This document shows positions 1 through 15,452 of a stretch of 18,936 bases of DNA, piece after piece. Within the stretch, counting starts at the first letter, position 1. Every line of letters starts with the position of its first letter. Under the pieces are notes generated by a model. That model searched no databases. It was given only the letters and a program-made list of their open reading frames with translations, and was not told where the DNA came from. Origin of the DNA: a virus (Duplodnaviria > Heunggongvirae > Uroviricota > Caudoviricetes); the IMG/VR virus record IMGVR_UViG_2529293138_000006, positions 1 through 18,936 of that record; one strand, 5' to 3'. Both the position numbers and the translations under genes were made by a program.

Positions 1-1143
1 CTATGCTGTTTTGATATCTACGATAATCCAGTCTTTACCACGATCATCATTGTATCGGTCGGTCATTTTTCTGGATTTATGGCCTAACAACTTTTGCGTA
101 TCCAGACCCTGTTCCCGATATAACCGTTCTGACAGAGATCGCTGTTCATGAAATGTGGGCGCAGTTCCTTGCTCCCATTTTATGCCACATTTTTCCCGGG
201 CCTTTTTAAAAGCCGTTGTCAGAGTATTTGCAGAAACCTGGTCTCCTCTGTTTGCTTGAGAGGTAGTGTGACGGTAATGGACCAGATATTTACTAACAAC
301 AGCATCCCTGCACTGAGATATAACTTCACGAAGGGTAATATTCAGAGCATCGCATTTCAGGTTAAGCGGAATAGCAAGTTTTGAACCGGTTTTTTCCTGA
401 GTAATGTGCAACATGTCGTCCCATATATCAGAGAATTTCAAATTGCAGATATCGCCTAAACGTTGTCCAGTAACAAGAGCAAGTAGCATGCCGCATTTTA
501 AATAGGGCTGCCGTCTGCTTACGCTTTCAAATATTGCCTGCCATTCGAGCAGTGACAATCTTTGGCGGTTTACTCGATTTCGCGGTTGTTTTGTTGCCTG
601 CGCTGGGTTAAATCCTGGCGGAACATGTCCTGCGTGTTGTGCTTCTTTGAAGACGTCGATCAACACCATTCTCACGACTTGCGCCATCCTGTTATGACCT
701 TCAGCCTTTACAGCATCAATTATTTCGGCAATATCAAGTGCGGTAATATCCTTGAGGTGTTGCATTCCACAATGCTCACGGAAAAGACGAATGGGTTTGC
801 CTTTTTGCCGATAGGAGTTGGGTCTTAGTTCATTATGTTGCAGCCTGTCCTCCTGGATAGAAATATATTTATCAAGCCATTCTGTCACCGTAATGTCTGA
901 GCGCCTGCCTTTCATTCTTTCCAGACGCTCATTGACGCTTAATATTTGTCTGGTACGTTGTTCAGCAATAATGGTATTTGCTTCAGTAGCAACTTGTTTT
1001 GCTTCATTCTCATCAGTTCCTAAGCTATGAAAACGACCGGATAGTGGATGTTTGTATTGCCAATATACCTTTCCGGTTCGCTTATCTAATTTGCAATATA
1101 AATTGGGTATAGAGATTTTGTGAGATCGGGGTCTAGCAGCCAT
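1..1143 (-). CDS. int: Phage integrase, tyrosine recombinase of the lambda Int family (380 aa)
   Basis: Full-length ORF with the stop codon at window position 1-3. C-terminal motifs typical of lambda-family integrases are visible in the translation (LALVTGQRLGDICNLKFSDI, TFHEQRSLSERLY, LLGHKS). Overlaps the excisionase by 11 nt. Not identical to lambda Int. Confidence 0.9.
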   Translation of the reverse strand: MAARPRSHKISIPNLYCKLDKRTGKVYWQYKHPLSGRFHSLGTDENEAKQVATEANTIIAEQRTRQILSVNERLERMKGRRSDITVTEWLDKYISIQEDRLQHNELRPNSYRQKGKPIRLFREHCGMQHLKDITALDIAEIIDAVKAEGHNRMAQVVRMVLIDVFKEAQHAGHVPPGFNPAQATKQPRNRVNRQRLSLLEWQAIFESVSRRQPYLKCGMLLALVTGQRLGDICNLKFSDIWDDMLHITQEKTGSKLAIPLNLKCDALNITLREVISQCRDAVVSKYLVHYRHTTSQANRGDQVSANTLTTAFKKAREKCGIKWEQGTAPTFHEQRSLSERLYREQGLDTQKLLGHKSRKMTDRYNDDRGKDWIIVDIKTA

Positions 1144-1369
1144 CAGCGATTATCCGTTGGAGTTTTGGGTTTGCGTTTATTGGGAGTTGCGGTTCTGCAA
1201 GCGTTCCTACAAAACGGGAATTTCGGTCAATCATCCAGTAGCGACCAACTTTTATAGCGGGTGGGGCCATCATTTTCCCTTGCGCGTATTTTTTCAGAAC
1301 TCGCTCACTTGGTGCTAAGTCCCCAAATTCTTCTTTAGCCCAGTCCTGTAAAGTGATTAGTCGAGACAT
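1133..1369 (-). CDS. xis: Excisionase-like small DNA-binding protein (78 aa)
   Basis: Small ORF immediately upstream of and overlapping int, the usual xis position. Strong SD (GGAGGA) about 4 nt before the ATG. Identity to a specific excisionase family is inferred from position and size only. Confidence 0.7.
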   Translation of the reverse strand: MSRLITLQDWAKEEFGDLAPSERVLKKYAQGKMMAPPAIKVGRYWMIDRNSRFVGTLAEPQLPINANPKLQRIIADGC

Positions 1370-1508
1370 TTGTCCTCCTCTTAGCTGCTGAGGGAGTTTG
1401 TGACCGATATATCTGACATGATATTAAGCTCATGGCAGGTACATCTCTTGACTGGTCATAGAGATAAATTTAATGCTGAGAAATGCAGTATTGAATTTAT
1501 CAATTTTT

Positions 1509-1748
1509 CTATTTCCTGCGTATGGCACGTAACTTCTTAATGTGTTCTGCCGTTTCGATCTCTTCTGCTATCCGATCTGCATCAGCTTTATTCACAGGTT
1601 CAAAGTCATGATTAAAGCGGAACATGCTGGCGATACATGTTCTGCCTTTTCGGATGTAGTGAACTTTGTTGTGGGTAGAACGCAGGATTTTGCAGGGAGT
1701 GCCGTGGTGGTCGACGTACCAGGTGTTAGGAAAAATGATTCTGAACAT
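1509..1748 (-). CDS. Hypothetical protein (79 aa) in the int-proximal accessory region
   Basis: ORF with a GAGGTG SD 5 nt upstream of the ATG; same orientation as neighbouring early-left genes. Not recognised. Confidence 0.5.
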   Translation of the reverse strand: MFRIIFPNTWYVDHHGTPCKILRSTHNKVHYIRKGRTCIASMFRFNHDFEPVNKADADRIAEEIETAEHIKKLRAIRRK

Positions 1749-1795
1749 TTTTACACCTCAGTTGGACGATGTTGAAATTTGCTGCTTTGAGGCCA

Positions 1796-2014
1796 TCACA
1801 ATCCCCATTGTTTGTTCTTAAGTTCGATCTCCTCCTGGCAACTTGCACAAGTCCGACAACCCTGAACGACCAGGCGTCTTCGCTCATCTATCGGATCGCC
1901 ACACTCACAACAATGAGTGGCAGATACAGTCTGGTAGTTCAGACGACGCATTTTTATTGCTGTATAGCGCTGTAATTCTTCGATTTCTGATGCTGAATCA
2001 ATGATGTCTGCCAT
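1796..2014 (-). CDS. DksA/TraR-family C4 zinc-finger protein, lambda Orf73-like (72 aa)
   Basis: Four-cysteine motif CxxC-N17-CxxC (CECGDPIDERRRLVVQGCRTCASC) in a ~70 aa protein, characteristic of TraR/DksA-type RNA polymerase-binding proteins carried by lambdoid phages. Confidence 0.7.
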   Translation of the reverse strand: MADIIDSASEIEELQRYTAIKMRRLNYQTVSATHCCECGDPIDERRRLVVQGCRTCASCQEEIELKNKQWGL

Positions 2015-2111
2015 CTTCCATTAATCCCTGAATTGTTGGTTAATACGCTTGAGGGTGAATGCGAATAATAAAAAGGAGCCTGTAGCTCCCTGATGATTTT
2101 GCTTTTCATGT

Positions 2112-2327
2112 TCACCGTTCCTTAAAGACGCCGTTTAACATGCCGATTGCCAGACTTAAGTGAGTCGGTGTGAATCCCATCAGCGTTACCGTTTCGCGGT
2201 GCTTCTTCAGTACGCTACGGCAAATGTCATCGACGTTTTTATCCGGAAACTGCTGTCTGGCTTTTTTGATTTCAGAATTAGCCTGACGGGCAATACTGCG
2301 AAGGGCGTTTTCTTGCTGAGGTGTCAT
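2112..2327 (-). CDS. Lambda orf61-like hypothetical protein
   Basis: Translation from the internal Met (MTPQQENALRSIARQANSEIKKAR...) matches my recollection of lambda orf61. The six-frame ORF extends to 2393, but the upstream 22 codons look non-genuine. Start choice is uncertain. Confidence 0.6.
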   Translation of the reverse strand: MTPQQENALRSIARQANSEIKKARQQFPDKNVDDICRSVLKKHRETVTLMGFTPTHLSLAIGMLNGVFKER

Positions 2328-2403
2328 TGAACAAGTCCCATGTCGGCAAGCATAAGCACACAGAATATGAAGCCCGCTGCCAGAAAAATGCATTCAGTGG
2401 TTG

Positions 2404-2595
2404 TCATACCTGGTCTCTCTCATCTGCTTCTGCTTTCGCCACCATCATTTCCAGCTTTTGTGAAAGGGATGTGGCTAACGTATGAAATTCTTCGTCTGTT
2501 TCTGCTGGTATTGGCACAAACCTGACTCCAATTTGAGCAAGGCTATGTGCCATCTCAATGCTCATTCTTAACTCAACAGGAGATGCTTTGTGCAT
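2404..2595 (-). CDS. Lambda orf63-like hypothetical protein (63 aa)
   Basis: Translation [23 protein letters not shown]... closely matches remembered lambda orf63; position between orf61 and orf60a as in lambda. Confidence 0.65.
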   Translation of the reverse strand: MHKASPVELRMSIEMAHSLAQIGVRFVPIPAETDEEFHTLATSLSQKLEMMVAKAEADERDQV

Positions 2596-2756
2596 ACAGC
2601 CCCTCGTTTATTATTTATCTCCTCAGCCAGCCGCTGGGCTTTCAGTGGATTTTGGATAACAGAAAGGCCGGGAAATACCCAGCCTCGCTTTGTAACGGAG
2701 TAGACGAAAGTGATCGCACCTACCCGGATATTATCGTGAGGATGCTTCATCGCCAT
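2568..2756 (-). CDS. Lambda orf60a-like hypothetical protein (62 aa)
   Basis: Translation [26 protein letters not shown]... matches remembered lambda orf60a; lies immediately downstream of exo with a short overlap. Confidence 0.6.
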
Positions 2757-3427
2757 TGCTCCCCAAATACAAAACCAATTTCAGCCAGTGCCTCGTCCAT
2801 TTTTTCGATGAACTCCGGCACCATCTCGTCAAAACTCGCCATGTAATTTTCATCCCGCTCAACCACGACATAATGCAGGCCTTCACGCTTCATTCGTGGG
2901 TCATAGTTGGCAAAGTACCAGGCATCTTTTCGCGTCACCCACATGCTGTACTGCACCTGGGCCATGTAAGCCGACTTTATGGCCTCGAAACCACCGAGCC
3001 GGAATTTCATGAAATCCCGGGAGGTAAACGGGCATTTCAGTTCAAGGCCGTTGCCGTCACTGCATAAACCATCGGGAGAGCAGGCGGTGCGCATACTTTC
3101 GTCGCGATAGATGATCGGGGATTCAGTAACATTCACGCCGGAAGTGAACTCAAAGAGGGCTCTGGCGTCGTTCTCGTACTGTTTTCCCCAGGCCAGCGCC
3201 TTAGCGTTAACTTCCGGAGCCACACCGGTGCAAACCTCGGCAAGCAGGGTGTGGAAGTAGGACATTTTCATGTCAGGCCATTTCTTTCCGGAGCGGGGTT
3301 TTGCTATCACATTGTGAACTTCTGAAGCGGTGATGACGCCGAGCCGTAATTTGTGCCACGCATCATCCCCCTGTTCGACAGCTCTCACGTCGATCCCGGT
3401 ACGCTGCAGGATAATGTCCGGTGTCAT
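2747..3427 (-). CDS. exo: Lambda exonuclease (Red-alpha, 5'-3' dsDNA exonuclease), 226 aa
   Basis: Translation is near-identical to lambda Exo along its whole length ([72 protein letters not shown]...GFVFGEQWR). Confidence 0.95.
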
Positions 3428-4209
3428 GCAGCCACCTTCTGTTCAGAGGCTTTCTGTTTCAGGAATCCAAGAGCTTTCACTGCTTCGGCCTGTGTCAGTT
3501 CTGACGATGCGCGAATGTCGCGGCGAAATATCTGGGAACAGAGCGGCAATAAGTCGTCATCCCATGTTTTGTCCAGGGCAATCAGCAGAGTGTTAATCTC
3601 CTGCATGGTTTCATCGTTAACCGGAGTGATGTCGCGTTCCGGCTGACGTTCTGCAGTGTATGCGGTATTTTCGACAATGCGCTCGGCTTCATCCTTGTCA
3701 TAGATACCCGCAAATCCGAAGGCCAGACGGGCACACTGAATCATGGCTTTATGACGTAACATCCGTTTGGGATGCGACTGCCACGGTCCGGTGATTTCTC
3801 TGCCTTCGCGGGTTTTGAATGGTTCGCGGCGACATTCATCCATCCACTCGGTAACGCAGATAGGATGATTGCGGTCCTTGCGGTAAATCCGGCATGTGCA
3901 GGATTCATTGTCCTGCTCAAAGTCCATACCATCAAACTGCTGGTTTTCATTGATGATGCGGGACCAGCCATCAACGCCCACCACCGGAACGATGCCGTTC
4001 TGCTTATCAGGGAAGGCGTAAATTTCTTTCGTCCACGGATTAAGGCCGTACTGGTTGGCGACGATCAACAATGCGATGAACTGCGCATCGCTGGCATCAC
4101 CTTTAAATGCCGTCTGGCGAAGAGTGGTGATCAGTTCCTGTGGGTCGACAGAATCCATGCCGACACGTTCAGCCAGCTTCCCAGCCAGCGTTGCGAGTGC
4201 AGTACTCAT
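3424..4209 (-). CDS. bet: Lambda Bet (Red-beta) single-strand annealing protein, 261 aa
   Basis: Translation matches lambda Bet along its length; stop overlaps the exo start, as in lambda. Confidence 0.95.
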
Positions 4210-4214
4210 TCGTT

Positions 4215-4511
4215 TTATACCTCTGAATCAATATCAACCTGATGGTGAGCAATGGTTTCAACCATGTACCGGATGTGTTCCGCCATGCGCTCCTGAAACT
4301 CAACATCGTCATCAAATGCACGGGTAATGGCTTTTTTGCTGGCCCCGTGGCGTTGCAAATGATCGATGCATAGCGATTCAAACAGGTGCTGGGGCAGGCC
4401 TTTTTCCATGTCGTCTGCCAGTTCTGCCTCTTTCTCTTCATGGGCGATCTGCTGGTAGTGACGCGCCCAGCTCTGAGCCTCAAGACGATCCTGAATGTAA
4501 TAAGCGTTCAT
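4215..4511 (-). CDS. gam: Gam (short form, GamS) RecBCD inhibitor, 98 aa
   Basis: Translation [60 protein letters not shown]... matches lambda Gam. AGGAG SD upstream of the ATG. The upstream frame contains TAA stops, so only the short form is encoded. Confidence 0.93.
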
Positions 4512-4586
4512 GGCTGAACTCCTGAAAATGGCTGTGAAAATATCGCCCGCGAAATGCCAGGCTGATTAGGTAAACAGGAAAGGGGA

Positions 4587-4793
4587 TTAGTGATTCAGAC
4601 CGTTGCCGCGCCCGTCGAGAAAAACTTCCACGAGCAAGTCACGGGTATAAGTGCGCTCGATGCCGCGATGCAGATAAAGCCGTCCGCGTAAATTAGCTGA
4701 TGCAGTCCAGGTACCATCTTTGTGTTTGACCAGCATTCCTGGCATGACCGCGCCGCGATTAACGGTCTGCGTTCCGTAATGTTGATGAACCAT
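4587..4793 (-). CDS. Hypothetical small protein (68 aa from the internal start; the ORF extends to 4877) at the kil/cIII position
   Basis: First ORF downstream of the predicted PL. The internal ATG at 4793 has an excellent SD (AGGAG, 5 nt spacer); the longer 96 aa form starting at 4877 has a poor SD. Sequence not recognised as lambda Kil, CIII or N. Confidence 0.5.
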   Translation of the reverse strand: MVHQHYGTQTVNRGAVMPGMLVKHKDGTWTASANLRGRLYLHRGIERTYTRDLLVEVFLDGRGNGLNH

Positions 4794-5070
4794 AAAAACT
4801 CCTGCCCGTAAGCTGGGCTGCTGAACATATAGAGACTTCTGCGCGTATTCAGGCGGTGGATGGCCGCCGGTTGTCATAACTAAGCCGCCTCGTTGAAGCG
4901 ACTAAGGTATGAAATGTTGAGTTGATTTCAGCTGGTCACACCGACGTTCACGCGTCCGTTTCACCCCTCGCACTCCCCGAAGCCTGCTGAAATTCAAACT
5001 GCGGATCTAAGCGGTCATCGCAACGGTGAATCAGGTGGTTGCCGTATCGTTGTGTTGTTGCGATGAACTT

Positions 5071-5099
5071 ATTTAAAACTATAGTTGTTTTACCGTCAA
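5071..5099 (-). promoter_or_regulatory. Candidate PL early-left promoter (-35 TTGACG, 17 nt spacer, -10 TTAAAT on the minus strand)
   Basis: Read on the minus strand: GTTGTTGACGG taaaacaactatagt TTAAAT. The -35 is embedded in a GTTGTT...AACAAC operator palindrome, mirroring the PR arrangement. Confidence 0.5.
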
Positions 5100-5127
5100 C
5101 AACAAAAGTTGTTTTATTGGTTGTTTT
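5082..5127. promoter_or_regulatory. OL-type operator cluster (GTTGTT-N8-AACAAC and AACAAC-N4-GTTGTT palindromes plus further GTTGTT half-sites)
   Basis: Repeated GTTGTT/AACAAC half-sites as inverted repeats, the same half-site as the perfect palindrome at OR (6876-6900). Confidence 0.5.
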
Positions 5128-5237
5128 AGATATAACTGGTTGTATTTAGGATGGATTTATTTTGTGACTTGCATCGCATAGCGATAACTGAAGTGAGGTC
5201 GTGGTGGTTTTTTGAACGGTGTGTGATGAGGGGAGGG

Positions 5238-5268
5238 CAAAAGAAAACCCGGCACGGTGGCCGGGTTT
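5238..5268 (-). terminator. Rho-independent terminator ending the leftward repressor/cargo operon (t-imm analog)
   Basis: Perfect 6 bp GC stem (CCCGGC / GCCGGG) with a 6 nt loop; on the minus strand it is followed by TTTTCTTTTG. Lies about 75 nt downstream of the stop of the 5343..5786 gene. Confidence 0.65.
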
Positions 5269-5342
5269 AGATGATTGGTTAAGAGCGAGGGTAATGGGGA
5301 ATGAAAAATCGCTTTACCTAATGCAAGGGTGCGAGCATTTTC

Positions 5343-5786
5343 TTAAGCACTAAAGAAAAAGTACATTGATAGCTTATAAAGTCCTGTTCCTGCAGCGATG
5401 ATTGCTGGAACACCAAGCAATACCGCAAGCTTTGCGTCTGAAATCTTTCTATCGACAGCATCACTTGATGGCTTGTTTGTTAAGGATTCTTTTATAGAGT
5501 CCAGACGTGCAAGAATAGTTATCATATTTTTGTCGATAGCTTTAACGTCTGTTTTAAGTTCATCAACGTCTCGTTTGATATGAGCAACATCGGACTCCAG
5601 TTTTGCAACTTTTTCAGGCATGTTATCACTCCCAGACCCACTGCTACCACTTGATTGTAGCATGTCCCATCTTTTTCCAGATATACCTGCTAGCTGGGAA
5701 GACGCACTGGAGTGCAAACAAAATGATTTTGCCGCCTTTGCAATTTTATCATTTAGGTTTGGAGCTTCGTAATAATCGTGTTTCAT
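5343..5786 (-). CDS. Hypothetical C-terminally membrane-anchored coiled-coil protein (147 aa; alternative start at 5621 gives 92 aa) in the rexB-equivalent position
   Basis: Single predicted C-terminal TM helix (LAVLLGVPAIIAAGTGLYKL) preceded by a heptad-like charged stretch (EKVAKLESDVAHIKRDVDELKTDVKAIDKNMITILARLDSIKESL). Internal ATG at 5621 has a GGGAG SD with a 7 nt spacer. AT-rich relative to flanks. Same strand as and downstream of the repressor. Confidence 0.6.
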   Translation of the reverse strand: MKHDYYEAPNLNDKIAKAAKSFCLHSSASSQLAGISGKRWDMLQSSGSSGSGSDNMPEKVAKLESDVAHIKRDVDELKTDVKAIDKNMITILARLDSIKESLTNKPSSDAVDRKISDAKLAVLLGVPAIIAAGTGLYKLSMYFFFSA

Positions 5787-5798
5787 AATTAATTACGA

Positions 5799-6062
5799 TT
5801 AGTTTGTTTTAGCTTTGTCATGCTGGTCGCGAATGAAGTCAGCCAATTTAAGCATCAATTCTTCGGGCATTCTAATGGTTGCAATGTTGTACTTTATGTT
5901 CTCAACATCGTCACTTTCATCAACAGGCCATTCAGTTACATTATGAAAAAAAGAAATTGAACCTAGGCGCTGAGAGCCGTCACCAAACGAAGAGTAGCCA
6001 AACGCGTCGGCGTATGCATCGACACAGTTATTTGATTTTTTAACAAGTGTTTTATTACTCAT
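5799..6062 (-). CDS. Hypothetical acidic soluble protein (87 aa) in the rexA-equivalent position
   Basis: ORF with a good SD (GGGAAAGG) about 6 nt upstream of the ATG; ends 12 nt before the next ORF (operon-like). AT-rich. Not recognised. Confidence 0.6.
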   Translation of the reverse strand: MSNKTLVKKSNNCVDAYADAFGYSSFGDGSQRLGSISFFHNVTEWPVDESDDVENIKYNIATIRMPEELMLKLADFIRDQHDKAKTN

Positions 6063-6144
6063 TTTTTGCCTTTCCCGTAATGTTATTTTTTATAAGGTAT
6101 TTTCTTCAGCGTATTACCCAAAAGCCTCATCAACACGCGGCTGA

Positions 6145-6834
6145 TTATCCGTGTTTTCTGTACGTCTGCGGCATGCTCCCAATAACCTTACCGAAGATGA
6201 ACACCCGGTTCATCTCGTCTTTCTCGATCGGGTCCCACGGTGAGTAGCTTTTGTTATCAGAGATGACCAGCAGCTTATCCTTCATCATTTGCAGGCGCTT
6301 TACATGGGCTGTGTCGTCGTACAGAAACGCATAGATACCATCACCGTCGAAAGATTTAACTGTGATATCAACGAACAGCAGATCACCTGGTTCGATCGTT
6401 CCTGACATGCTGTCACCACGCACGTTAATGATGCGGATATTTTCCGCCTTCCTACCATCGAACATATGACGAGCATCGTCAAACGAGTACTCAACCGAGC
6501 GTAGAACTTCTACAAACTCACGGTTGATGACTCCCGGCCCAGCACTGACTTCTATATCAAGAACGTCAATCTTGAAGTATTTGGAATGGCTGACAGTTGA
6601 TTGTATTGGTTGCACTGTACTGTCTGACATATTTCCAACGCCAGAAGATAACCATTCTGCGCGCACACCCAAAGCGTTCGCGATCTCCACGATTTTAGTT
6701 GTTTGATTAGCTTTCCCTGTTTCGATTTTCTGAATAGCAGCTTGGCTAACCCCGACCAAATCCCCAAGCGCCTTTTGTGTAAGGCCTCGCGCTAATCTGG
6801 CTTCTTTAAGTCTTTCTGAGAGTGTTGTTTTCAT
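6145..6834 (-). CDS. Prophage repressor, cI-type (N-terminal XRE-family HTH, C-terminal S24 LexA-like autopeptidase), 229 aa
   Basis: HTH region (LKEARLARGLTQKALGDLVGVSQAAIQKIETGK), an Ala-Gly cleavage site (EVSAGPG), the catalytic Ser motif (GDSMSG) and a downstream Lys (HVKRL). Start chosen at MKTTLSERL (6834) rather than the ORF-track start at 6900. Divergent from the Cro-like gene. Confidence 0.9.
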   Translation of the reverse strand: MKTTLSERLKEARLARGLTQKALGDLVGVSQAAIQKIETGKANQTTKIVEIANALGVRAEWLSSGVGNMSDSTVQPIQSTVSHSKYFKIDVLDIEVSAGPGVINREFVEVLRSVEYSFDDARHMFDGRKAENIRIINVRGDSMSGTIEPGDLLFVDITVKSFDGDGIYAFLYDDTAHVKRLQMMKDKLLVISDNKSYSPWDPIEKDEMNRVFIFGKVIGSMPQTYRKHG

Positions 6835-6875
6835 AGTCCAAATGTACAACCAAGGTTTTATTTCATCAAACGAAA

Positions 6876-6900
6876 ATGGTTGTTGACTAAAAACAACCAT
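6876..6900. promoter_or_regulatory. OR operator: perfect palindrome ATGGTTGTT-N7-AACAACCAT
   Basis: A 9 bp perfect inverted repeat with a 7 bp spacer, lying between the divergent repressor and cro-like genes and overlapping the -35 of the predicted PR. A weaker related site is at 6845-6858 (ACAACCaaGGTTTT). Confidence 0.6.
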
Positions 6901-6911
6901 AGTTTTAATCT
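6883..6911 (+). promoter_or_regulatory. Candidate PR promoter (-35 TTGACT, 17 nt spacer, -10 TAATCT)
   Basis: Hexamers with 17 nt spacing upstream of the Cro-like gene; GGAGG SD at 6927-6931 precedes its ATG at 6939. Confidence 0.5.
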
Positions 6912-6938
6912 TGATTCAAATTAACCACGGAGGTTGTT

Positions 6939-7169
6939 ATGAACCCAGCTATCAAAACAGCGATCAATATCGTTGGTTCACAAAAGAAACTGGGCGCTGC
7001 TTGCGAAGTTTCACAGCAGGCCGTCTATAAGTGGCTTCACAACAAAGCAAAGGTATCCCCTGAACATGTCGGCAGCATTGTTACGGCTACTGGTGGAGTA
7101 GTGAAGGCATACCAGATTCGCCCGGATCTTCCGAAGTTGTTTCCACACACCGAAAAGAACGCAGCTTAA
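6939..7169 (+). CDS. Cro-like / YdaS-family small HTH regulator (76 aa)
   Basis: Small ORF divergent from the repressor with a strong SD. A helix-turn-helix-like segment (QKKLGAACEVSQQAVYKWLHNK) is present. Role inferred from position. Confidence 0.8.
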   Translation: MNPAIKTAINIVGSQKKLGAACEVSQQAVYKWLHNKAKVSPEHVGSIVTATGGVVKAYQIRPDLPKLFPHTEKNAA

Positions 7170-7181
7170 ATTTCCATTTCA

Positions 7182-7194
7182 CGCTCTTTAACAA
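7182..7194 (+). promoter_or_regulatory. boxA-like element (CGCTCTTTAACAA) at the nutR position
   Basis: Matches the NusB/NusE boxA consensus (GCTCTTTAACAA) 12 nt after the Cro-like stop codon. No convincing boxB hairpin follows. Confidence 0.45.
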
Positions 7195-7238
7195 TAAGCA
7201 ATCAACTTAACAGTCAATTCAAACTAAAGGAGTCAATT

Positions 7239-7982
7239 ATGCAACCACTTACATACCAACAGACTAGCGGATTTAGCCCGACTGCGGTGATAAATCGTTC
7301 TCAAACAAAACAGGTGCCAGGCCACGAAAAAATCCGTGATGCCGTCCGCGCTTGGTCGGCTGAAGATAATCAGGATGTCGTTGCCACACTCATTGTGAAT
7401 GAGTATCGGGAGCAGGGCGGCGGCACCATCGATTTCCCTGATGATGTCAGCCGTGCACGCCAGAAGCTGTTCCGCTTCCTCGATAACAAATTCGATTCTG
7501 AAAAATACCGAAATAACGTGCGTGAACTGACCCCGGCAATTCTGGCGGTACTACCGCTGGAATATCGCGGCCACCTGGTTGAGCAGGATAGCTTCATGGC
7601 TCGGCTGGCTGAAATGGAAAAGGAACTCAGTGAGGCAAAGCAGGCGGTCATTCTCAACGCACCACGCCACCAGAAACTGAAGGAGATGAGTGAAGGCATT
7701 GTGTCGATGTTTCGAGTGGACCCGGATCTGGCTGGTCCATTGATGGCGATGGTCACCACCATGCTGGGGGCAATATGGCAGGTTCAAAAATGGCGAAAGT
7801 CGGTCTGCGGGAACAGAACCGACTTTCAGGTGCAAATCGTAACACACTCATTGCGGGAGGAATTATGGCAAACACTGCTGAGATATTCAATTTTCCAGTG
7901 CCGGATGCGGCACAAAAGGAGCCGCGCGTGGCAGATCTCGATGATTATACGCGCATTGCAAATGAGTTGCTGGAAGCTGTAA
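7239..7982 (+). CDS. Hypothetical protein at the cII position (possibly a CII/YdaT-like regulator); C-terminal extent uncertain
   Basis: ORF starting with a good SD (AAAGGAG) after the boxA region. The last ~70 codons overlap the O-like start by 118 nt and have an atypical W/Q/R/C-rich composition, suggesting either a shorter true gene or a frameshift. Confidence 0.45.
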   Translation: MQPLTYQQTSGFSPTAVINRSQTKQVPGHEKIRDAVRAWSAEDNQDVVATLIVNEYREQGGGTIDFPDDVSRARQKLFRFLDNKFDSEKYRNNVRELTPAILAVLPLEYRGHLVEQDSFMARLAEMEKELSEAKQAVILNAPRHQKLKEMSEGIVSMFRVDPDLAGPLMAMVTTMLGAIWQVQKWRKSVCGNRTDFQVQIVTHSLREELWQTLLRYSIFQCRMRHKRSRAWQISMIIRALQMSCWKL

Positions 7983-8791
7983 TGCTGGCCGGATTAACAC
8001 AGCACCAGCTTCTGGTCTTCCTGGCTGTCATGCGCAAAACATATGGCTTTAATAAAAAACTGGATTGGGTGAGCAACGAGCAACTTTCCGAGTTGACCGG
8101 GATATTGCCGCACAAGTGTTCTGCTGCAAAAAGTGTTCTGGTAAAGCGTGGGATTTTTATTCAGAGCGGGCGGAATATCGGCATTAATAATGTGGTCAGT
8201 GAATGGTCAACATTACCCGAATCAGGTAAGAAAAATAAAGTTTACCTGAAAGAGGTAAATTTACCTGAATCAGGTAAGAAAAGTTTACCCAAATCAGGTA
8301 AAGGCACTTACCCGAATCAGGTAAACACAAAAGACAAACTAACAAAAGACAATATAAAACCTTATTCGTCCGAGAATTCTGGCGAATCCTCTGACCTGCC
8401 AGAAAACGACCTTCCTGTGGTGAAAGCGGATGCTGCGATTCAGAGCGGCAGCAAGTGGGGGACAGCAGAAGACCTGACCGCCGCAGAGTGGATGTTTGAC
8501 ATGGTGAAGACCATCGCGCCATCAGCCAGAAAACCGAATTTTGCAGGGTGGGCTAACGATATCCGCCTGATGCGTGAACGTGACGGACGTAACCACCGCG
8601 ACATGTGCGTGCTGTTCCGCTGGGCATGCCAGGACAACTTCTGGTCCGGTAACGTGCTAAGTCCGGCCAAACTCCGCGACAAGTGGACCCAACTCGAAAT
8701 CAACCGTAACAAGCAACAGGCAGGCGTGACAGCTAGCAAACCAAAACTCGACCTGACAAACACAGACTGGATTTACGGGGTGGATCTATGA
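7865..8791 (+). CDS. O: Replication initiator, lambda O-like (308 aa), with an origin embedded in the coding sequence
   Basis: N-terminus MANTAEIFNFPV...ADLDDYTRIANELLEA...RKTYGFNKK resembles lambda O (MTNTAKILNF...). The C-terminal ~100 aa (NFAGWANDIRLMRERDGRNHRDMCVLFRWACQDNFWSGN...WIYGVDL) matches the lambda O P-interaction domain. GGAGG SD precedes the ATG at 7865. Confidence 0.88.
   Translation: MANTAEIFNFPVPDAAQKEPRVADLDDYTRIANELLEAVMLAGLTQHQLLVFLAVMRKTYGFNKKLDWVSNEQLSELTGILPHKCSAAKSVLVKRGIFIQSGRNIGINNVVSEWSTLPESGKKNKVYLKEVNLPESGKKSLPKSGKGTYPNQVNTKDKLTKDNIKPYSSENSGESSDLPENDLPVVKADAAIQSGSKWGTAEDLTAAEWMFDMVKTIAPSARKPNFAGWANDIRLMRERDGRNHRDMCVLFRWACQDNFWSGNVLSPAKLRDKWTQLEINRNKQQAGVTASKPKLDLTNTDWIYGVDL
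8213..8365. repeat. Replication origin: five ~18 bp iterons (TTACCCGAATCAGGTAAG type, each an internal palindrome) followed by an A/T-rich tract
   Basis: Iteron copies at 8213-8230, 8242-8258 (degenerate), 8261-8278, 8285-8302 and 8308-8325, followed by the AT-rich 8326-8365 (cacaaaagacaaactaacaaaagacaatataaaacc). Classic lambdoid ori architecture inside O. Confidence 0.8.
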
Positions 8792-9489
8792 AAAACATCG
8801 CCGCACAGATGATTAACTTTGACCGTGAGCAGATGCGTCGGATCGCCAACAACATGCCGGAACAGTACGACGAAAAGCCTCAGGTACAGCAGGTAGCGCA
8901 GATCATCAATGGTGTGTTCAGCCAGTTACTGGCAACTTTCCCGGCGAGCCTGGCTAACCGTGACCAGAATGAACTGAACGAAATCCGCCGCCAGTGGGTT
9001 CTGGCTTTCCGGGAAAACGGGATCACCACAATGGAACAGGTTAACGCTGGAATGCGCGTAGCCCGTCGGCAGAATCGACCATTTCTGCCATCACCCGGGC
9101 AGTTTGTTGCATGGTGCCGGGAAGAAGCATCCGTTATCGCCGGACTGCCAAACGTCAGCGAGCTGGTTGATATGGTTTACGAGTATTGCCGGAAGCGAGG
9201 CCTGTATCCGGATGCGGAGTCTTATCCGTGGAAATCAAACGCGCACTACTGGCTGGTTACCAACCTGTATCAGAACATGCGGGCCAATGCGCTTACTGAT
9301 GCGGAATTACGCCGTAAGGCCGCAGATGAGCTTGTCCATATGACTGCGAGAATTAACCGTGGTGAGGCGATCCCTGAACCAGTAAAACAACTTCCTGTTA
9401 TGGGCGGTAGACCTCTAAATCGTGCACAGGCTCTGGCGAAGATCGCAGAAATTAAAGCTAAGTTCGGACTGAAAGGAGCAAGTGTATGA
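8788..9489 (+). CDS. P: Lambda P replication protein (DnaB helicase loader), 233 aa
   Basis: Translation is near-identical to lambda P over its full length; ATG overlaps the O stop (ATGA). Confidence 0.95.
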   Translation: MKNIAAQMINFDREQMRRIANNMPEQYDEKPQVQQVAQIINGVFSQLLATFPASLANRDQNELNEIRRQWVLAFRENGITTMEQVNAGMRVARRQNRPFLPSPGQFVAWCREEASVIAGLPNVSELVDMVYEYCRKRGLYPDAESYPWKSNAHYWLVTNLYQNMRANALTDAELRRKAADELVHMTARINRGEAIPEPVKQLPVMGGRPLNRAQALAKIAEIKAKFGLKGASV

Positions 9490-9788
9490 CGGGCAAAGAG
9501 GCAATTATTCATTACCTGGGGACGCATAAGAGCTTCTGTGCACAGGACGTTGCCGCGGTAACAGGCGCAACCGTAACCAGCATAAATCAGGCTGCGGCTA
9601 AAATGGCGCGGGCAGGAATCCTGGTCGTTGATGGTAAGGTCTGGCGAACGGTGTATTACCGGTTCGCTACCAGAGAAGAACGGGAAGGAAAGGTGAGCAC
9701 GAATCTGATTTTTAAGGAGTGTCGCCAGAGTGCCGCGATGAAACGCGTATTGAGGGTATATAAAAGAACATCAATGGGTACACAATGA
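9486..9788 (+). CDS. ren: Ren (Rex exclusion protein), 100 aa
   Basis: Translation MTGKEAIIHYLGTHKSFCAQDVAAVTGATVTSINQAAAKMARAGILVVDGKVWRTVYYRFATREEREGK... matches lambda Ren; overlaps the P stop. Confidence 0.9.
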   Translation: MTGKEAIIHYLGTHKSFCAQDVAAVTGATVTSINQAAAKMARAGILVVDGKVWRTVYYRFATREEREGKVSTNLIFKECRQSAAMKRVLRVYKRTSMGTQ

Positions 9789-9855
9789 TGAAACAGGTGA
9801 GTTGATTTCAAACTGTAGTACAATTCTCTCCAGTTTGAACAGGAAAGAATATGCT

Positions 9856-10188
9856 ATGAACCCTTATATTTATCTTGGTGGTGCAATACTTGCAGAGGTC
9901 ATTGGTACAACCTTAATGAAGTTTTCAGAAGGTTTTACACGGTTATGGCCATCTGTTGGTACAATTATTTGTTATTGTGCATCATTCTGGTTATTAGCTC
10001 AGACGCTGGCTTATATTCCTACAGGGATTGCTTATGCTATCTGGTCAGGAGTCGGTATTGTCCTGATTAGCTTACTGTCATGGGGATTTTTCGGCCAACG
10101 GCTGGACCTGCCAGCCATTATAGGCATGATGTTGATTTGTGCCGGTGTGTTGGTTATTAATTTATTGTCACGAAGCACACCACATTAA
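9856..10188 (+). CDS. emrE: EmrE small multidrug resistance (SMR) efflux transporter, 110 aa
   Basis: Translation from MNPYIYLGGAILAEVIGTTLMKFSEGFTRLWPSVGTIICYCASFWLLAQTLAYIPTGIAYAIWSGVGIVLISLLSWGFFGQRLDL... matches E. coli EmrE. Four TM helices are evident. Same location (after ren) as in the DLP12 prophage. Confidence 0.93.
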   Translation: MNPYIYLGGAILAEVIGTTLMKFSEGFTRLWPSVGTIICYCASFWLLAQTLAYIPTGIAYAIWSGVGIVLISLLSWGFFGQRLDLPAIIGMMLICAGVLVINLLSRSTPH

Positions 10189-10217
10189 AATAATTTGTTT
10201 CTAAACGACTAAAATAT

Positions 10218-10250
10218 GGAGGCTCTTATATTTATATGAGCCTCGTTTTA
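10218..10250 (+). terminator. Rho-independent terminator downstream of emrE
   Basis: Perfect 7 bp stem GAGGCTC...GAGCCTC with a 12 nt AT loop, followed by GTTTTATGCTTTTTG. Confidence 0.6.
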
Positions 10251-10442
10251 TGCTTTTTGTTAATGTCTTTATTTTTTATGTATTCTTTTGTGCTTTCAAG
10301 ATTATGGCGTAAGAAAATTGCAATACGATTATTGTTGTATATTCAAGATAATGTGACCTTAATTGTCTTTTTAAATAAAAATTAAACAAAAATTATATCC
10401 CACCACTAAGGTTTATAAAAGCATACGTTAGCAGGTGTCACC

Positions 10443-11969
10443 ATGAAAAAAGCCATAGCATATATGCGATTTTCATCACCAGGTCAGATGTCTGGCGACT
10501 CATTAAACCGACAGAGAAGACTTATTGCTGAATGGTTAAAGGTAAATAGTGATTATTATCTTGATACCATAACATATGAAGATTTAGGATTAAGTGCATT
10601 CAAAGGAAAGCATGCACAATCAGGAGCTTTTTCGGAATTTTTAGATGCTATAGAGCATGGTTATATATTGCCAGGAACTACATTGTTAGTTGAAAGTCTG
10701 GACAGACTTTCAAGAGAAAAAGTCGGTGAAGCGATTGAGCGTCTGAAATTGATTTTGAATCACGGTATTGATGTTATAACTCTTTGCGATAATACAGTCT
10801 ATAATATTGACTCTTTGAATGATCCATATTCATTAATAAAAGCCATACTTATAGCACAAAGGGCAAATGAAGAAAGCGAGATAAAGTCAAGTCGGGTTAA
10901 ATTATCATGGAAGAAAAAACGGCAGGATGCACTGGAGTCAGGCACGATTATGACGGCGTCTTGTCCGAGATGGCTCTCCTTAGATGACAAAAGAACGGCT
11001 TTTGTTCCAGACCCCGACAGGGTGAAAACTATTGAGCTAATTTTTAAACTCAGGATGGAAAGGCGCTCATTGAATGCAATAGCCAAGTATTTAAATGATC
11101 ATGCTGTAAAGAATTTCTCAGGAAAAGAAAGTGCATGGGGACCTTCTGTAATTGAAAAATTATTAGCGAATAAAGCTCTGATAGGTATATGCGTACCTTC
11201 ATATCGTGCAAGAGGTAAAGGAATAAGTGAAATCGCTGGCTATTATCCCAGAGTCATATCAGATGATTTGTTTTACGCTGTGCAGGAAATTCGGTTGGCA
11301 CCTTTTGGTATTAGCAATAGTAGCAAAAATCCTATGTTGATAAATCTACTTCGAACAGTTATGAAGTGCGAGGCTTGTGGTAATACCATGATTGTTCATG
11401 CGGTATCTGGAAGTTTGCATGGCTATTATGTTTGTCCGATGAGAAGACTGCATCGATGTGACAGGCCATCAATAAAGAGAGATTTGGTTGATTATAATAT
11501 CATTAATGAGTTGCTTTTTAATTGTAGTAAAATCCAACCAGTTGAAAACAAGAAAGATGCTAATGAAACTTTAGAGTTGAAAATTATTGAGCTCCAGATG
11601 AAAATTAATAATTTAATTGCTGCATTATCTGTTGCGCCTGAAGTTACCGCTATAGCAGAAAAAATCAGAGTATTAGATAAGGAATTACGAAGGGCTTCTG
11701 TATCATTAAAAACTTTGAAGAGTAAAGCGGTGAGCTCACTTGGTGATTTTCATGCTATTGACTTAACCAGTAAAAATGGGCGAGAGCTATGTCGTACACT
11801 TGCCTATAAAACATTCGAAAAAATCATAATCAATACAGATAATAAAACCTGTGATATCTATTTTATGAATGGCATTGTTTTTAAACACTACCCTTTAATG
11901 AAAACAATATCCGCCCAGCAGGCGATAAGTACTCTCAAATATATGGTTGATGGTGAGGTTTATTTTTGA
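10443..11969 (+). CDS. ybcK: Large serine recombinase (DLP12 YbcK-like), 508 aa
   Basis: N-terminal resolvase-type catalytic region with the serine motif (AIAYMRFSSPGQ), a long recombinase domain and a Cys-rich segment (CEACGN...CPMRRLHRC) consistent with a zinc ribbon. AT-rich codon usage. Confidence 0.85.
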   Translation: MKKAIAYMRFSSPGQMSGDSLNRQRRLIAEWLKVNSDYYLDTITYEDLGLSAFKGKHAQSGAFSEFLDAIEHGYILPGTTLLVESLDRLSREKVGEAIERLKLILNHGIDVITLCDNTVYNIDSLNDPYSLIKAILIAQRANEESEIKSSRVKLSWKKKRQDALESGTIMTASCPRWLSLDDKRTAFVPDPDRVKTIELIFKLRMERRSLNAIAKYLNDHAVKNFSGKESAWGPSVIEKLLANKALIGICVPSYRARGKGISEIAGYYPRVISDDLFYAVQEIRLAPFGISNSSKNPMLINLLRTVMKCEACGNTMIVHAVSGSLHGYYVCPMRRLHRCDRPSIKRDLVDYNIINELLFNCSKIQPVENKKDANETLELKIIELQMKINNLIAALSVAPEVTAIAEKIRVLDKELRRASVSLKTLKSKAVSSLGDFHAIDLTSKNGRELCRTLAYKTFEKIIINTDNKTCDIYFMNGIVFKHYPLMKTISAQQAISTLKYMVDGEVYF

Positions 11970-12081
11970 GTAATAATCACTTTTTTCAACCGTGCTATAG
12001 TAAGAAAGTTAGGTAAGTACAATAAAATTATCTATCCTGAACGAAGCGTCCTGAGCTATGGTTTTACTATAGGGACTGCCA

Positions 12082-12411
12082 ATGGATGCTGGCGTTCTCG
12101 TTCTAGCAGTTCAACAATCCCCAATCACAAAACAATTCACTGATAACGAACTTTGCACACTCGCCTGGTTATGGCGAGCAGGGAATGTGATGTTAATTGC
12201 CTACCAGAACGTTACTCATCTTCTTCAGGATGCGGAGCATGGTGAAGCTGGTCGCTTCACTTCCATCGAGCAAGAATATCCCCAGATACTCACCAGAGCG
12301 CGAGCAATCCTCGCCAGAGAAACGGCACATGTAAAATTCCAGCCGTGGCAGGATGATAAGTGGAGTCGAGTATTGCCACATTTGCGTCAGAATGTTATTA
12401 AACAACGTTAG
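12082..12411 (+). CDS. Hypothetical protein (109 aa)
   Basis: ORF only; weak SD. Not recognised. Could be a gene remnant. Confidence 0.35.
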   Translation: MDAGVLVLAVQQSPITKQFTDNELCTLAWLWRAGNVMLIAYQNVTHLLQDAEHGEAGRFTSIEQEYPQILTRARAILARETAHVKFQPWQDDKWSRVLPHLRQNVIKQR

Positions 12412-12470
12412 CTACTGTGTCTCTCCAATTTAGCTAACATATGGATTCATAAGAAAAAGGAGCTTTTGCC

Positions 12471-12722
12471 ATGATGTCCTTCACCAAATGTAAATTAATG
12501 CACAGCCATAAAACTAGCGTAAATGCAGCGCTCTTGGACGATACGAAATTAGTTGTAGAGAGGGATCTCCATTTTCTTCGTGAGTTATACATATCAAGCC
12601 CAGAAGAATTTGTCGGACATTGGGTTTATGCAAATGAGCCAATATTTCATGAACATCCACTGTCTGTTGGCCTTTCTGGTATTGTCTATCACAAGGTTAT
12701 TGATGAAATTGAAAAATCATAA
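12471..12722 (+). CDS. Hypothetical protein (83 aa)
   Basis: ORF with a good SD (AAGGAG, ~8 nt spacer). Not recognised. Confidence 0.45.
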   Translation: MMSFTKCKLMHSHKTSVNAALLDDTKLVVERDLHFLRELYISSPEEFVGHWVYANEPIFHEHPLSVGLSGIVYHKVIDEIEKS

Positions 12723-12892
12723 TCAATAAGCAATAATACCGTCACCGTTGGCCTGAACACCCTGCGGTGACTTCTGCGCATATGATTGGGAAATTATATG
12801 CGACCACAAGTTAAACTCCTCGCCTTGCCACAGATGCAGAAATGCACCTGCGTTTTTTTGCATCCAACGTTTGACCTCTGCGGAGGTGAAGC

Positions 12893-13348
12893 GTGAACCT
12901 CCCACAAGACGGCATCAAATTACATCGCGGCAACTTCACCGCTATCGGCCAGCAGATCCAGCCTTATCTGGAGGACGGAAAATGCTTTCGCATGGTGCTT
13001 AAACCGTGGCGTGAGAAACGCAGTCTTTCCCAGAATGCACTCAGCCACATGTGGTACAGCGAAATCAGTGAATACCTCATCAGCAAGGGTAAAACGTTCG
13101 CCACTCCAGCTTGGGTAAAAGATGCTCTCAAACACACATATCTCGGTTATGAAACCAAAGACCTGGTTGATGTCGTAACCGGTGATATCACCACTATCCA
13201 GTCGTTACGCCATACCTCCGATCTTGATACCGGAGAGATGTATGTCTTCCTGTGTAAGGTTGAAGCCTGGGCGATGAATATTGGCTGCCACCTGACTATT
13301 CCGCAGAGCTGCGAGTTCCAGCTGCTGCGCGACAAGCAGGAGGCGTAA
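12893..13348 (+). CDS. ybcN: NinB-family recombination protein (DLP12 YbcN-like), 151 aa, GTG start
   Basis: Translation matches remembered DLP12 YbcN ([19 protein letters not shown]...). GGAGG SD 6 nt upstream of the GTG. Confidence 0.85.
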
Positions 13349-13518
13349 TGGCTACACCGCTTATTCGTGTCATGAACGGACACATCTACAAAGTACCAAA
13401 TCGTCGTAAGCGTAAACCTGAGCTGAAGCCATCCGAAATACCAACACTGCTCGGATATACCGCCAGCCTGGTTGATAAAAAATGGTTGCGACTGGCAGCA
13501 AGGAGGAATCATGGCTGA
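13348..13518 (+). CDS. ninE: NinE-like small basic protein (56 aa)
   Basis: Manually translated: [59 protein letters not shown] overlaps the ybcN stop (TAATG). Below the ORF-track size cutoff. Confidence 0.6.
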   Translation: MATPLIRVMNGHIYKVPNRRKRKPELKPSEIPTLLGYTASLVDKKWLRLAARRNHG

Positions 13519-13801
13519 TTTGAGAAAAGCAGCGCGTAGTCGGGAATGCCAGGTAAGAATCCCTGGCGTATGTAATGGCAACCCTGAAACGTCTGTACTG
13601 GCACATATCCGGCTGACTGGATTGTGCGGCACCGGTACCAAACCGCCAGACTTGATTGCCACCATTGCATGTTCTGCCTGCCACGACGAAATCGACCGCC
13701 GCACACATTTTGTCGATGCTGCATATGCAAAAGAATGCGCGCTGGAAGGTATGGCGAGAACACAGGTTATCTGGCTGAAAGAGGGGGTTATTAAGGCGTG
13801 A
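13511..13801 (+). CDS. ybcO: YbcO-like protein (DUF1364 family, putative nuclease), 96 aa
   Basis: Start chosen at [10 protein letters not shown] with an AGGAGG SD; Cys-rich translation ([11 protein letters not shown]...CSACHDEID) matches remembered DLP12 YbcO. Confidence 0.75.
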
Positions 13802-14160
13802 ATACCTACAGCATCACATTACCTTGGCCTCCGAGCAATAATCGCTACTACCGGCATAATCGCGGGCGCACGCACATCAGCGCAGAAGGGCAGGCATACC
13901 GTGATAACGTCGCCCGAATCATTAAAGGCTCAATGCTGGATATCGGCCTGGCTATTCCTGTGAAAATCCGCATAGAGTGCCACATGCCGGATCGCCGTCG
14001 CCGTGACCTGGATAATCTGCAAAAAGCCGCTTTTGACGCACTCACTAAAGCAGGTTTCTGGCTGGATGATGAGCTGGTCGTTGATTACCGCGTTGTGAAG
14101 ATGCCTGTTACCAAAGGTGGGAAGCTGGAACTGACCATCACTGAACTGGGAGATGAATGA
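13798..14160 (+). CDS. rusA: RusA Holliday junction resolvase, 120 aa, GTG start
   Basis: Translation [26 protein letters not shown]...[27 protein letters not shown]... matches E. coli RusA. Confidence 0.9.
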
Positions 14161-14297
14161 TGTTTGAGTCTTGTATGGCAGAACGTCTTCGCCGCCGCTG
14201 GGTGCGCCTGCGCTTATATCGTTTCCCCGGTTCTGTTTTGACCGATTACCGAATACTGAAGAATTACGCCAAAACCCTGACAGGAGCAGGAGTATGA
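14157..14297 (+). CDS. ylcG: YlcG-like small protein (46 aa)
   Basis: Manually translated: [46 protein letters not shown]. Overlaps the rusA stop. Matches remembered DLP12 YlcG. Confidence 0.6.
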
Positions 14298-14382
14298 AGT
14301 CAGAGATAACAATCAACTAATACTGTTTTGTTGATTTTTGCTTGTAATTGGCGTTCTGGTCTGATTTTTGTGGAGTAAGTTG

Positions 14383-14727
14383 ATGCGTGATATGTATGAA
14401 GTTTTGGATCGCTGGGGGGCATGGGCTGCAGCAGATAACAGTGGTGTGGACTGGCAGCCGATAGCAGCAGGCTTCAAGGGGCTTTTACCTCATGGCAAAA
14501 AGTCCCGGATGCAGTGTGATGATGATGAAGGTCTTATGATTGATGGATGTGTGGCGAGGTTGCGTAAATATAAGCCAGAAGAATATGAGCTACTAATTGC
14601 CCACTTTGTTATTGGGATCTCATTACGCACCATTGCTAAGAAAAGAAAATGCTCTGATGGCACAATTAGGAAGGAGTTGCAAACTGCAGTAGGATTTATA
14701 AACGGTGTAATGTCAGTATTTAAATAA
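14383..14727 (+). CDS. Late-gene antiterminator Q-like protein (DLP12 QuuD-like family), 114 aa
   Basis: Position (last gene of the nin region, before the lysis genes), a Cys/His cluster (CDDDEGLMIDGCVARL...) and resemblance to remembered QuuD. Start chosen at ATG 14383 (GGAGT SD) rather than TTG 14368. Confidence 0.75.
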   Translation: MRDMYEVLDRWGAWAAADNSGVDWQPIAAGFKGLLPHGKKSRMQCDDDEGLMIDGCVARLRKYKPEEYELLIAHFVIGISLRTIAKKRKCSDGTIRKELQTAVGFINGVMSVFK

Positions 14728-14745
14728 GCGCCAATTAAGGCGCTT
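14726..14745. terminator. Hairpin between the convergent Q-like and minus-strand cargo genes (possible bidirectional terminator)
   Basis: AAGCGCC-AATTAA-GGCGCTT inverted repeat overlapping both stop codons. T-tracts are short, so efficiency is uncertain. Confidence 0.4.
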
Positions 14746-15298
14746 TAAATGGAACGGGAACCTGTAAAGCGTTAGCAGCTATCTCAACTATTTTCTCGTT
14801 TGGAATATTTGCTAATATAAAGCGTTCCCTTTCTTGTAAAATTTTGTTTATAACGTAATACACGCTTAACATGCTGAACAACATTGATTCTTCCTTTGCT
14901 TTGCAAGAATAGTTATCCACTTTCCAGTTTTCAGACACATAGTCATATTTTGATTTAATTTGCTTTGATAGTAATAGAACATTTTTTAATGCTATTCGAG
15001 TGTCTCGATTGTAGTAAGAGTAAATATTATCTATGTTCTTCTCTAGAATAATTGGTTCAAACGTTTTCCCTAAAGAAATATACTGAAAATCTTTGGGTTT
15101 AAATGTGCGTTCTTTTATGCTTTTGCTAGTGGTTTTGATAGATTTCTCTAGTATTGATAATTCATCCTCTAACTCAGTGAATATGCTTTTTTTTAATGTT
15201 TTTATCTTTTCTTTTTCCTTTCTAGACTCAACATATGGCGCTAGTATAATACCCAAAAGAAAAGTGGTAAAAGGAATTAAGCTTTTGATAATGTCCAT
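14735..15298 (-). CDS. Hypothetical membrane-anchored, Lys/Glu-rich protein (187 aa); AT-rich moron
   Basis: N-terminal hydrophobic helix (LIPFTTFLLGIILAPYV), then a highly charged, low-GC body. AGGAAA SD before the ATG. Opposite orientation to the late operon. Confidence 0.6.
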   Translation of the reverse strand: MDIIKSLIPFTTFLLGIILAPYVESRKEKEKIKTLKKSIFTELEDELSILEKSIKTTSKSIKERTFKPKDFQYISLGKTFEPIILEKNIDNIYSYYNRDTRIALKNVLLLSKQIKSKYDYVSENWKVDNYSCKAKEESMLFSMLSVYYVINKILQERERFILANIPNEKIVEIAANALQVPVPFKAP

Positions 15299-15412
15299 GG
15301 TTTCCTTATTTTTTCATATGATTAACGCTAGGAAAATATGATAATAAAAAACTAACGCGTACGCAAAAATTATTGTATCGTGTTAAGAGTGGTTACTTTG
15401 TCACGTGGCTTA

Positions 15413-15440
15413 AGCCCGCCGTCGAGCGGGTTTCGTCGTT
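15413..15440 (+). terminator. Rho-independent terminator-like hairpin (candidate tR')
   Basis: GCCCGC-CGTCGA-GCGGGT stem-loop followed by TTTCGTCGTTT on the plus strand, immediately before a G9 homopolymer. Confidence 0.5.
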
Positions 15441-15452
15441 TGAGGGGGGGGG

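Follow-up and report, generated by a model that had tools for sequence, protein, structure and literature searches.

In phage lambda the replication origin lies inside the gene of its own initiator, O. The N-terminal half of O and the repeated sites termed iterons set origin specificity, the C-terminal half matches the partner protein P, and crossovers in the middle of O are viable, as established for lambda, 82 and phi80 around 1978-1981. Hybrid O proteins of lambda-82 and lambda-phi80, together with comparative ori analysis, were reportedly described by Furth and Yates in 1978, by Moore et al. in 1979 and 1981 and by Grosschedl and Hobom in 1979. Those hybrids were made in the laboratory, whereas the locus analysed here carries a natural and widespread allele. 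It is an O-type replication initiator gene, followed by P, in the IMG/VR virus record IMGVR_UViG_2529293138_000006 (Caudoviricetes), of which we analysed positions 1 to 18,936 (the whole stretch is hereafter called the window). Four 18-bp iterons and an AT-rich sequence of 38 bp make up the origin of lambda (PMC3349717); the iterons, which are inverted repeats, are bound by O dimers, a 40-bp A+T region opens and P-DnaB is recruited (PMC5043065). Origin binding by lambda O resides in its N-terminal 162 amino acids (aa; work cited in PMC2629481), and in ES18 and epsilon34 an N-domain of the lambda type is paired with a helicase partner (PMC2629481). We conclude with high confidence that the window holds a lambdoid theta-replication origin inside its own initiator gene and that this gene is a natural recombinant of two modules; as the replication origin of a lambda-like prophage, the region is ordinary.

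The Pfam family Phage_rep_O (PF04492) matched residues 22-114 of the window O protein with E = 1.8e-30 (105.8 bits against a cut-off of 28.7), and the complete protein is an exact match to WP_032296406.1, 'replication protein [Escherichia coli]'. When compared with lambda O, the protein falls into two unequal parts: residues 1-115 are identical at 55 of 114 positions (48%) and residues 166-308 at 139 of 142 (97.9%). At the DNA level, similarity to lambda climbs from 0.6 or less to at least 0.87 over positions 8327-8363, high identity beginning at about 8342-8363, and identity left and right of this joint differs with Fisher p = 2e-56 (Table 1). The lambda-like block continues through P (PF06992, Phage_lambda_P, E = 5.4e-62), the start of which overlaps the O stop codon (ATGA), and through ren, which is likewise nearly the same as in lambda, and stops abruptly at about 9770. 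A sequence-only reading of the window had described a mosaic initiator with an N-terminus related to lambda O yet diverged, a near-identical C-terminal part of about 100 aa and a near-identical P. This description is supported, except that the near-identical part is longer, about 142 aa, and the alignment along O revealed not uniform divergence but an abrupt change over about 40 bp. The property it describes has long been known for lambdoid O proteins.

Table 1. Features of the O-P region of the window, with nucleotide (nt) identity to lambda where compared. Positions are those of the window.
Feature	Position	Strand	nt identity to lambda	Basis and remarks
YdaT-toxin-family gene, 'CII-like'	7239-7982	+		phrog_163; 247-aa product = EGX08268.1, E. 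coli STEC_MHI813
O-type replication initiator gene, origin embedded	7865-8791	+		Translation, 308 aa; Pfam Phage_rep_O; collinear with lambda O
Type-specific N-terminal domain of O, residues 1-115, predicted iteron-binding winged-helix part	7865-8209	+		Identity to other O proteins
N part of O, as compared with lambda	7865-8212		53.3%	
Iterons, whole array	8213-8324		52.9%	
Iteron 1, TTACCCGAATCAGGTAA	8213-8229			Extra copy without lambda counterpart; starts 29 bp before iteron 2
Iteron 2, TTACCTGAAAGAGGTAA	8242-8258			Positional counterpart of lambda ITN1 (alignment)
Iteron 3, TTACCTGAATCAGGTAA	8261-8277			Both 7-nt arms fully complementary; counterpart of lambda ITN2
Iteron 4, TTACCCAAATCAGGTAA	8285-8301			Counterpart of lambda ITN3
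Iteron 5, TTACCCGAATCAGGTAA	8308-8324			Counterpart of lambda ITN4
A-rich tract, predicted DNA-unwinding element and recombination joint of the two modules	8325-8362		76.3%	38 bp, 73.7% A+T, 24 A
Lambda-type C-terminal part of O, residues 167-308, predicted P-binding domain	8363-8791	+	97.0%	97.9% aa identity to lambda
P gene, lambda-type loader of host DnaB helicase	8788-9489	+	98.3%	Pfam Phage_lambda_P; 230/233 aa (98.7%)
ren-like gene, right end of the lambda-like block	9486-9788	+	90.4%	phrog_142, Ren-like

The middle of the gene carries an array of inverted-repeat iterons, as in lambda. The pattern TTACCNNAANNAGGTAA, a 17-bp palindrome, has five matches, all at 8213-8324 and none elsewhere in the 18.9 kb, where 0.03 would be expected by chance and where none of 200 shuffles attained the observed count. 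The start-to-start spacing of iterons 1-5 is 29, 19, 24 and 23 bp, so that iterons 2-5 stand 19, 24 and 23 bp apart compared to 20, 24 and 23 bp for ITN1-4 of lambda. In the multiple alignment the last iteron abuts ACACAAAAGACA in both the window and lambda, and the A-rich tract follows directly to its right. Five iteron copies and an AT-rich tract had been proposed inside the gene by the sequence-only reading, which also held that the iterons differ from those of lambda; we found both to be correct. Identity to the lambda ori was looked for and refuted, as the half-sites are TTACC-N7-GGTAA in the window and TCCCTC-N5-GAGGGA in lambda. The locus thus shares with the rep-lambda type (lambda, 434, 21 and 933W) the C-domain of O and P (97.9% and 98.7% aa identity), while the iterons and the N-domain of that type are absent; with its TTACC-N7-GGTAA iterons and an N-domain at 48% identity, the window therefore does not hold a rep-lambda origin. 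A full-text literature search with the iteron sequence returned no open-access paper quoting it. Owing to the extra iteron copy 1, the O proteins of relatives are longer than that of lambda (309 aa compared to 299). Three relatives (P0043, P0070 and P0097) carry one or two additional 24-bp LPESGKKS units in alignment columns 159-174, which results in six or seven iterons; these are Salmonella prophage O proteins of the window type, and they parallel the six-iteron origins of Stx phages (PMC7466680). The Stx phages 933W and P27 (six iterons) resemble the window in that extra iterons lengthen the O linker and in their lambda-type C-domain and P (PMC7466680), whereas their iterons and N-domain are of the lambda type and the extra copies are duplicated lambda iterons.

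Relatives of the window O provide natural controls for the proposed modules. The N-domain is 48% identical to that of lambda O, 60% to that of P22 gp18, 60.5% to that of SEN34, 83.5% to that of the Klebsiella phage GZ7 and about 90% to that of an E. coli O protein of 284 aa. By these comparisons its type stands nearer to gene 18 of P22 than to O of lambda, and P22 also has TTACC...GGTAA-like half-sites and the same A-rich core. In contrast, the C-domain of the P22 initiator is unrelated and its partner is the DnaB-type helicase gp12; the gene downstream of O in the window is lambda P, which sets the window apart from the gene 18/12 type, where a phage DnaB-type helicase follows the initiator. 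The closest N-domains (83-90% aa identity) belong to GZ7 and to E. coli prophages, namely loci L009 and L010, encoding the 284-aa protein P0006 (90% identity over the N-terminal 166 residues), and L012, encoding the 285-aa protein P0024. Of the loci scanned, L009 and L012 have the five-iteron array of the window, likewise spaced at 29/19/24/23, and in GZ7 iterons 2-5 stand at the window spacing and the first copy is degenerate. The C-domains of all these proteins are, however, unrelated to those of lambda and the window, and an IstB/DnaC-type loader is encoded downstream instead of P. Therefore, one N-domain/iteron array occurs with three C-domain/loader sets: that of the window, that of GZ7 and L009/L010, and that of L012. 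The phage mEpX1 combines a different N-domain (52%) and GTCTC...GAGAC iterons with a DnaC-type loader and a C-domain that shares 65% identity with the L009 one; in SEN34, a lambda-type C-domain and P accompany iterons of the form TTAGC...GCTAA. The co-variation of the N-domain with its iterons, which had been expected from the window alone, is thus seen in GZ7, L009, L012 and mEpX1; across these loci the N-domain travels with the iterons and the C-domain with the loader, and the two units assort independently. Among the N-terminal matches in the phage collection there was no record of phage 82.

Finer mosaicism was observed within the N-domain. Positions 7865-7966 are 80-89% identical to SEN34, followed by about 50%, and positions 8117-8206 are 96-100% identical to the E. 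coli 284-aa type, compared to 71-87% further left. For phage D2, the match to the N part of O does not extend beyond the first 243 nt.

The two modules meet in the A-rich tract. Its core, CACAAAAGACA-N3-6-ACAAAAGA, is a single-copy sequence in the window; of the 12 O-bearing loci retrieved, 11 likewise contain it once, irrespective of type, and a 24-nt core of the tract is common to lambda, 434, 933W, P22, SEN34 and the GZ7/E. coli prophage relatives. Compared with the window, GZ7 and L009 show a nucleotide similarity of 0.73-1.00 as far as about 8355 and of about 0.3 beyond. Since this similarity ends where that to lambda rises, the exchange is placed within the A-rich tract, in agreement with the joint inside O that the sequence-only reading had postulated. 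Furthermore, the record of lambda itself contains recombination marks (misc_recomb) inside O at 39157/8 and 39165/6 that align with the window joint; they flank ATTCGTCA, exactly at the onset of the window-lambda identity. The A-rich core supplies the homology for the exchange, and from the near-identity of the C-domain and P the joint would keep compatibility with lambda P. As a tentative proposal, to which we give less than even weight, the tract (24-38 nt, with the core described above) may double as a conserved in-frame exchange joint, at which at least five iteron/N-domain types (lambda, the window type, P22, SEN34 and, with a variant tract, mEpX1) would be shuffled with at least four C-domain/helicase-recruitment solutions (lambda P, two DnaC-type sets and the P22 helicase); modular exchange would then partly account for its conservation.

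In our interpretation, module 1 (7865 to about 8355) comprises the predicted DNA-binding N-terminal domain of O, which is specific to the type, together with the five iterons expected as its targets. Module 2 (about 8363 to about 9770) contains P, ren and the C-terminal domain of O, which is of the lambda type. If initiation proceeds as in lambda, each iteron would be bound by O dimers, with bending and wrapping of the DNA, the adjoining A-rich tract would melt, and the C-terminal domain of O would recruit the P-DnaB complex. The modules were joined by homologous recombination inside the A-rich tract. Being conserved in origins of different types and coding for part of a linker that is hydrophilic and probably flexible, the tract tolerates in-frame exchange. 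Residues 115-199 of O are strongly hydrophilic and 75% disorder-promoting, and the origin sequences encode residues 117-166 within this stretch. A flexible linker would explain the presence of binding sites within coding sequence as well as the tolerated in-frame crossovers. Fifteen phage records carry the allele at full length with 96.7-98.1% identity, annotated as replication protein O; they include genomes deposited under phage names (Perceval, 4A7, Lambda_4C10 and the PhiR series), which speaks for the viability of the type.

Several points weigh against this interpretation. Every mechanistic step, that is binding, unwinding and the O-P interaction, is inferred from lambda. The AlphaFold2 model of O, based on a shallow alignment of 16 sequences, is too poor to confirm the domain folds or the linker disorder (mean predicted local distance difference test score 45, predicted template modelling score 0.25) and gives a weak hint only of helices at residues 22-94 and 201-286. 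Sequence and profile searches of the PDB found no solved structure of the O family; the sole match, ChaB (E = 0.008), was judged meaningless. In addition, the window O has lost Gly28 of the motif DLDDG[YF] through a 3-bp deletion at 7943-7948, a motif that is invariant in 15 of 15 aligned relatives as well as in lambda, P22, SEN34 and mEpX1, and the stop codon of the upstream YdaT/CII-like gene is lost (TGA to TGG at 7776-7778). The two changes make impairment of this prophage copy a modest possibility.

The architecture could accordingly be as described and the copy nevertheless be a decaying, non-functional prophage origin or initiator. Such decay would fit with the loss of a residue from an otherwise invariant motif and with the YdaT/CII-like gene, which measures 181 aa in Perceval and L010 and here continues for another 66 codons, so that it overlaps O by the first 118 nt of the latter. 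Moreover, the best E. coli matches (99.1%) span 930 bp compared to the 927 bp of the query, consistent with a retained codon, and the exact protein was found on only 5 contigs although its 90% cluster has 7825 members. On the other hand, the iterons, the A-rich tract, the C-domain, P and all reading frames are intact, the loss of one residue close to the boundary of the Pfam domain does not necessarily inactivate O, and the allele recurs in several assemblies; both variants recur in a few assemblies, e.g. in E. coli STEC_MHI813. We consider decay unlikely.

Far less probable is that the repeats are a peptide linker of LPESGKK units selected at the protein level and hold no DNA sites. The sequence-only reading had noted that the iterons encode a repetitive LPESGKK linker, and iterons 1, 3 and 4 are indeed read as LPESGK or LPKSGK; the gain of whole 24-bp LPESGKKS units in relatives would suit such a linker too. 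Yet iterons 2 and 5, for which that statement does not hold, are read in another frame as YLKEVN and YPNQVN despite having the same DNA sequence, each copy is a 17-bp palindrome that a peptide repeat would not need, and in position, spacing and an adjoining A-rich tract the copies agree with the lambda iterons defined by experiment, which are likewise read in several frames. Palindromic copies with the same DNA in two reading frames suggest that it is the DNA, and not the peptide, that is under constraint, and a repeat maintained purely at the peptide level was rejected on the grounds of the two frames, the palindromes and the lambda-like position and spacing. Least credible of all is the divergence of O in place without recombination, its N-terminal half evolving fast under diversifying selection and its C-terminal half held by the interaction with P: specificity domains of phage regulators often do diverge faster than partner-binding domains and the N-domain can still be aligned with that of lambda over its full length, but the C part shows 97% nucleotide identity, which extends to synonymous sites, compared to 53% on the left with the change within about 40 bp, the near-identity runs on through P and ren to its sudden end, and GZ7 and L009 are reciprocal mosaics, 73-100% identical up to about 8355 and unrelated afterwards, so that rate heterogeneity alone, contradicted by these mosaics and by the unequal synonymous divergence across the joint, was rejected.

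The start of O was placed at 7865. It is backed by GGAGG 8 nt upstream of the ATG, and the N-termini of O from lambda, GZ7, SEN34 and the E. coli relatives align at this position, whereas the sequences upstream differ; the comparison supports this start rather than the upstream ATG. A longer open reading frame from the ATG at 7775 is used in some annotations (the Perceval O is given as 339 aa), and the corresponding 338-aa form of the window O is also present in the protein collection. On the minus strand, a promoter-like site was identified at 7862-7890 (TTGAAT-17-CATAAT with an upstream TG), with the -10 element overlapping the O start codon and the -35 element in codons 7-9 of O. About 70 nt downstream of it, at 7785-7826 (-), lies a hairpin followed by CGCCAUUUUUG (free energy -25.2 kcal/mol, z = -3.56); compensatory changes preserve the hairpin in SEN34, GZ7, L009, L010 and L012. 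Promoter-like site and hairpin together suggest an antisense RNA of the oop type that covers the 3' end of the YdaT/CII-like gene, and the layout at the start of O matches that of the lambda pO (oop promoter). The Rfam search of the window returned no RNA family match. Minus-strand open reading frames cross the O region at 7945-8115, 8196-8522 and 8440-8763, and none of the analyses points to a gene there.

The window represents the early region of a lambdoid prophage with likeness to DLP12 and phage 82. The gene order begins with int, exo (YqaJ), bet (RecT), kil, cI, a YdaS-type cro and the YdaT/CII-like gene, continues with O, P, ren, emrE and the ybcK serine recombinase, and ends with a nin region containing rusA, a Q-like gene, holin, lysozyme and Rz. 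Replication from lambdoid O/ori modules depends on rightward transcription. The genes from cI through cro and the YdaT-like gene to O and P are all directed rightward; upstream of O the window has a gene of the 181-aa YdaT/CII-like class, where lambda has cII. The emrE gene and the ybcK large serine recombinase gene, located directly 3' of ren (9802-11969), constitute DLP12-like cargo. The nin region of phage 82 (X92588) is 94.6% identical to window positions 12741-14287; the match ends short of Q82, and the Q-like gene of the window, at 14368-14727 (phrog_79), is different. Between this gene and the lysis genes, in a position typical for morons, are two leftward open reading frames, 14735-15298 (-) and 15643-16191 (-), assigned to phrog_31367 and to phrog_5663/DUF2441, respectively, both of unknown function. 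A porin (OmpD) was among the features beneath the window match in related phage records.

The arrangement is long known and very common in E. coli, and neither its kind nor its sequence is new: matches covering at least 80% of the O gene were present in 2368 of 5426 complete E. coli genomes, i.e. the specificity type of the window is present in approximately 44% of them, including O157:H7. The public records of the window allele list no origin or iteron features. The locus has little value as a discovery and some practical value. It is a natural example of an initiator gene in which origin specificity (N-domain and iterons) and loader specificity (C-domain and P) are separate modules, which recombine in a linker encoded by the origin itself, a principle set for lambda, 82 and phi80 some 45 years ago. 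Given the frequency of this type among E. coli genomes, co-resident lambdoid prophages that have a lambda-type P and different origin types are the rule, and this matters for predicting cross-activation or incompatibility among prophages.

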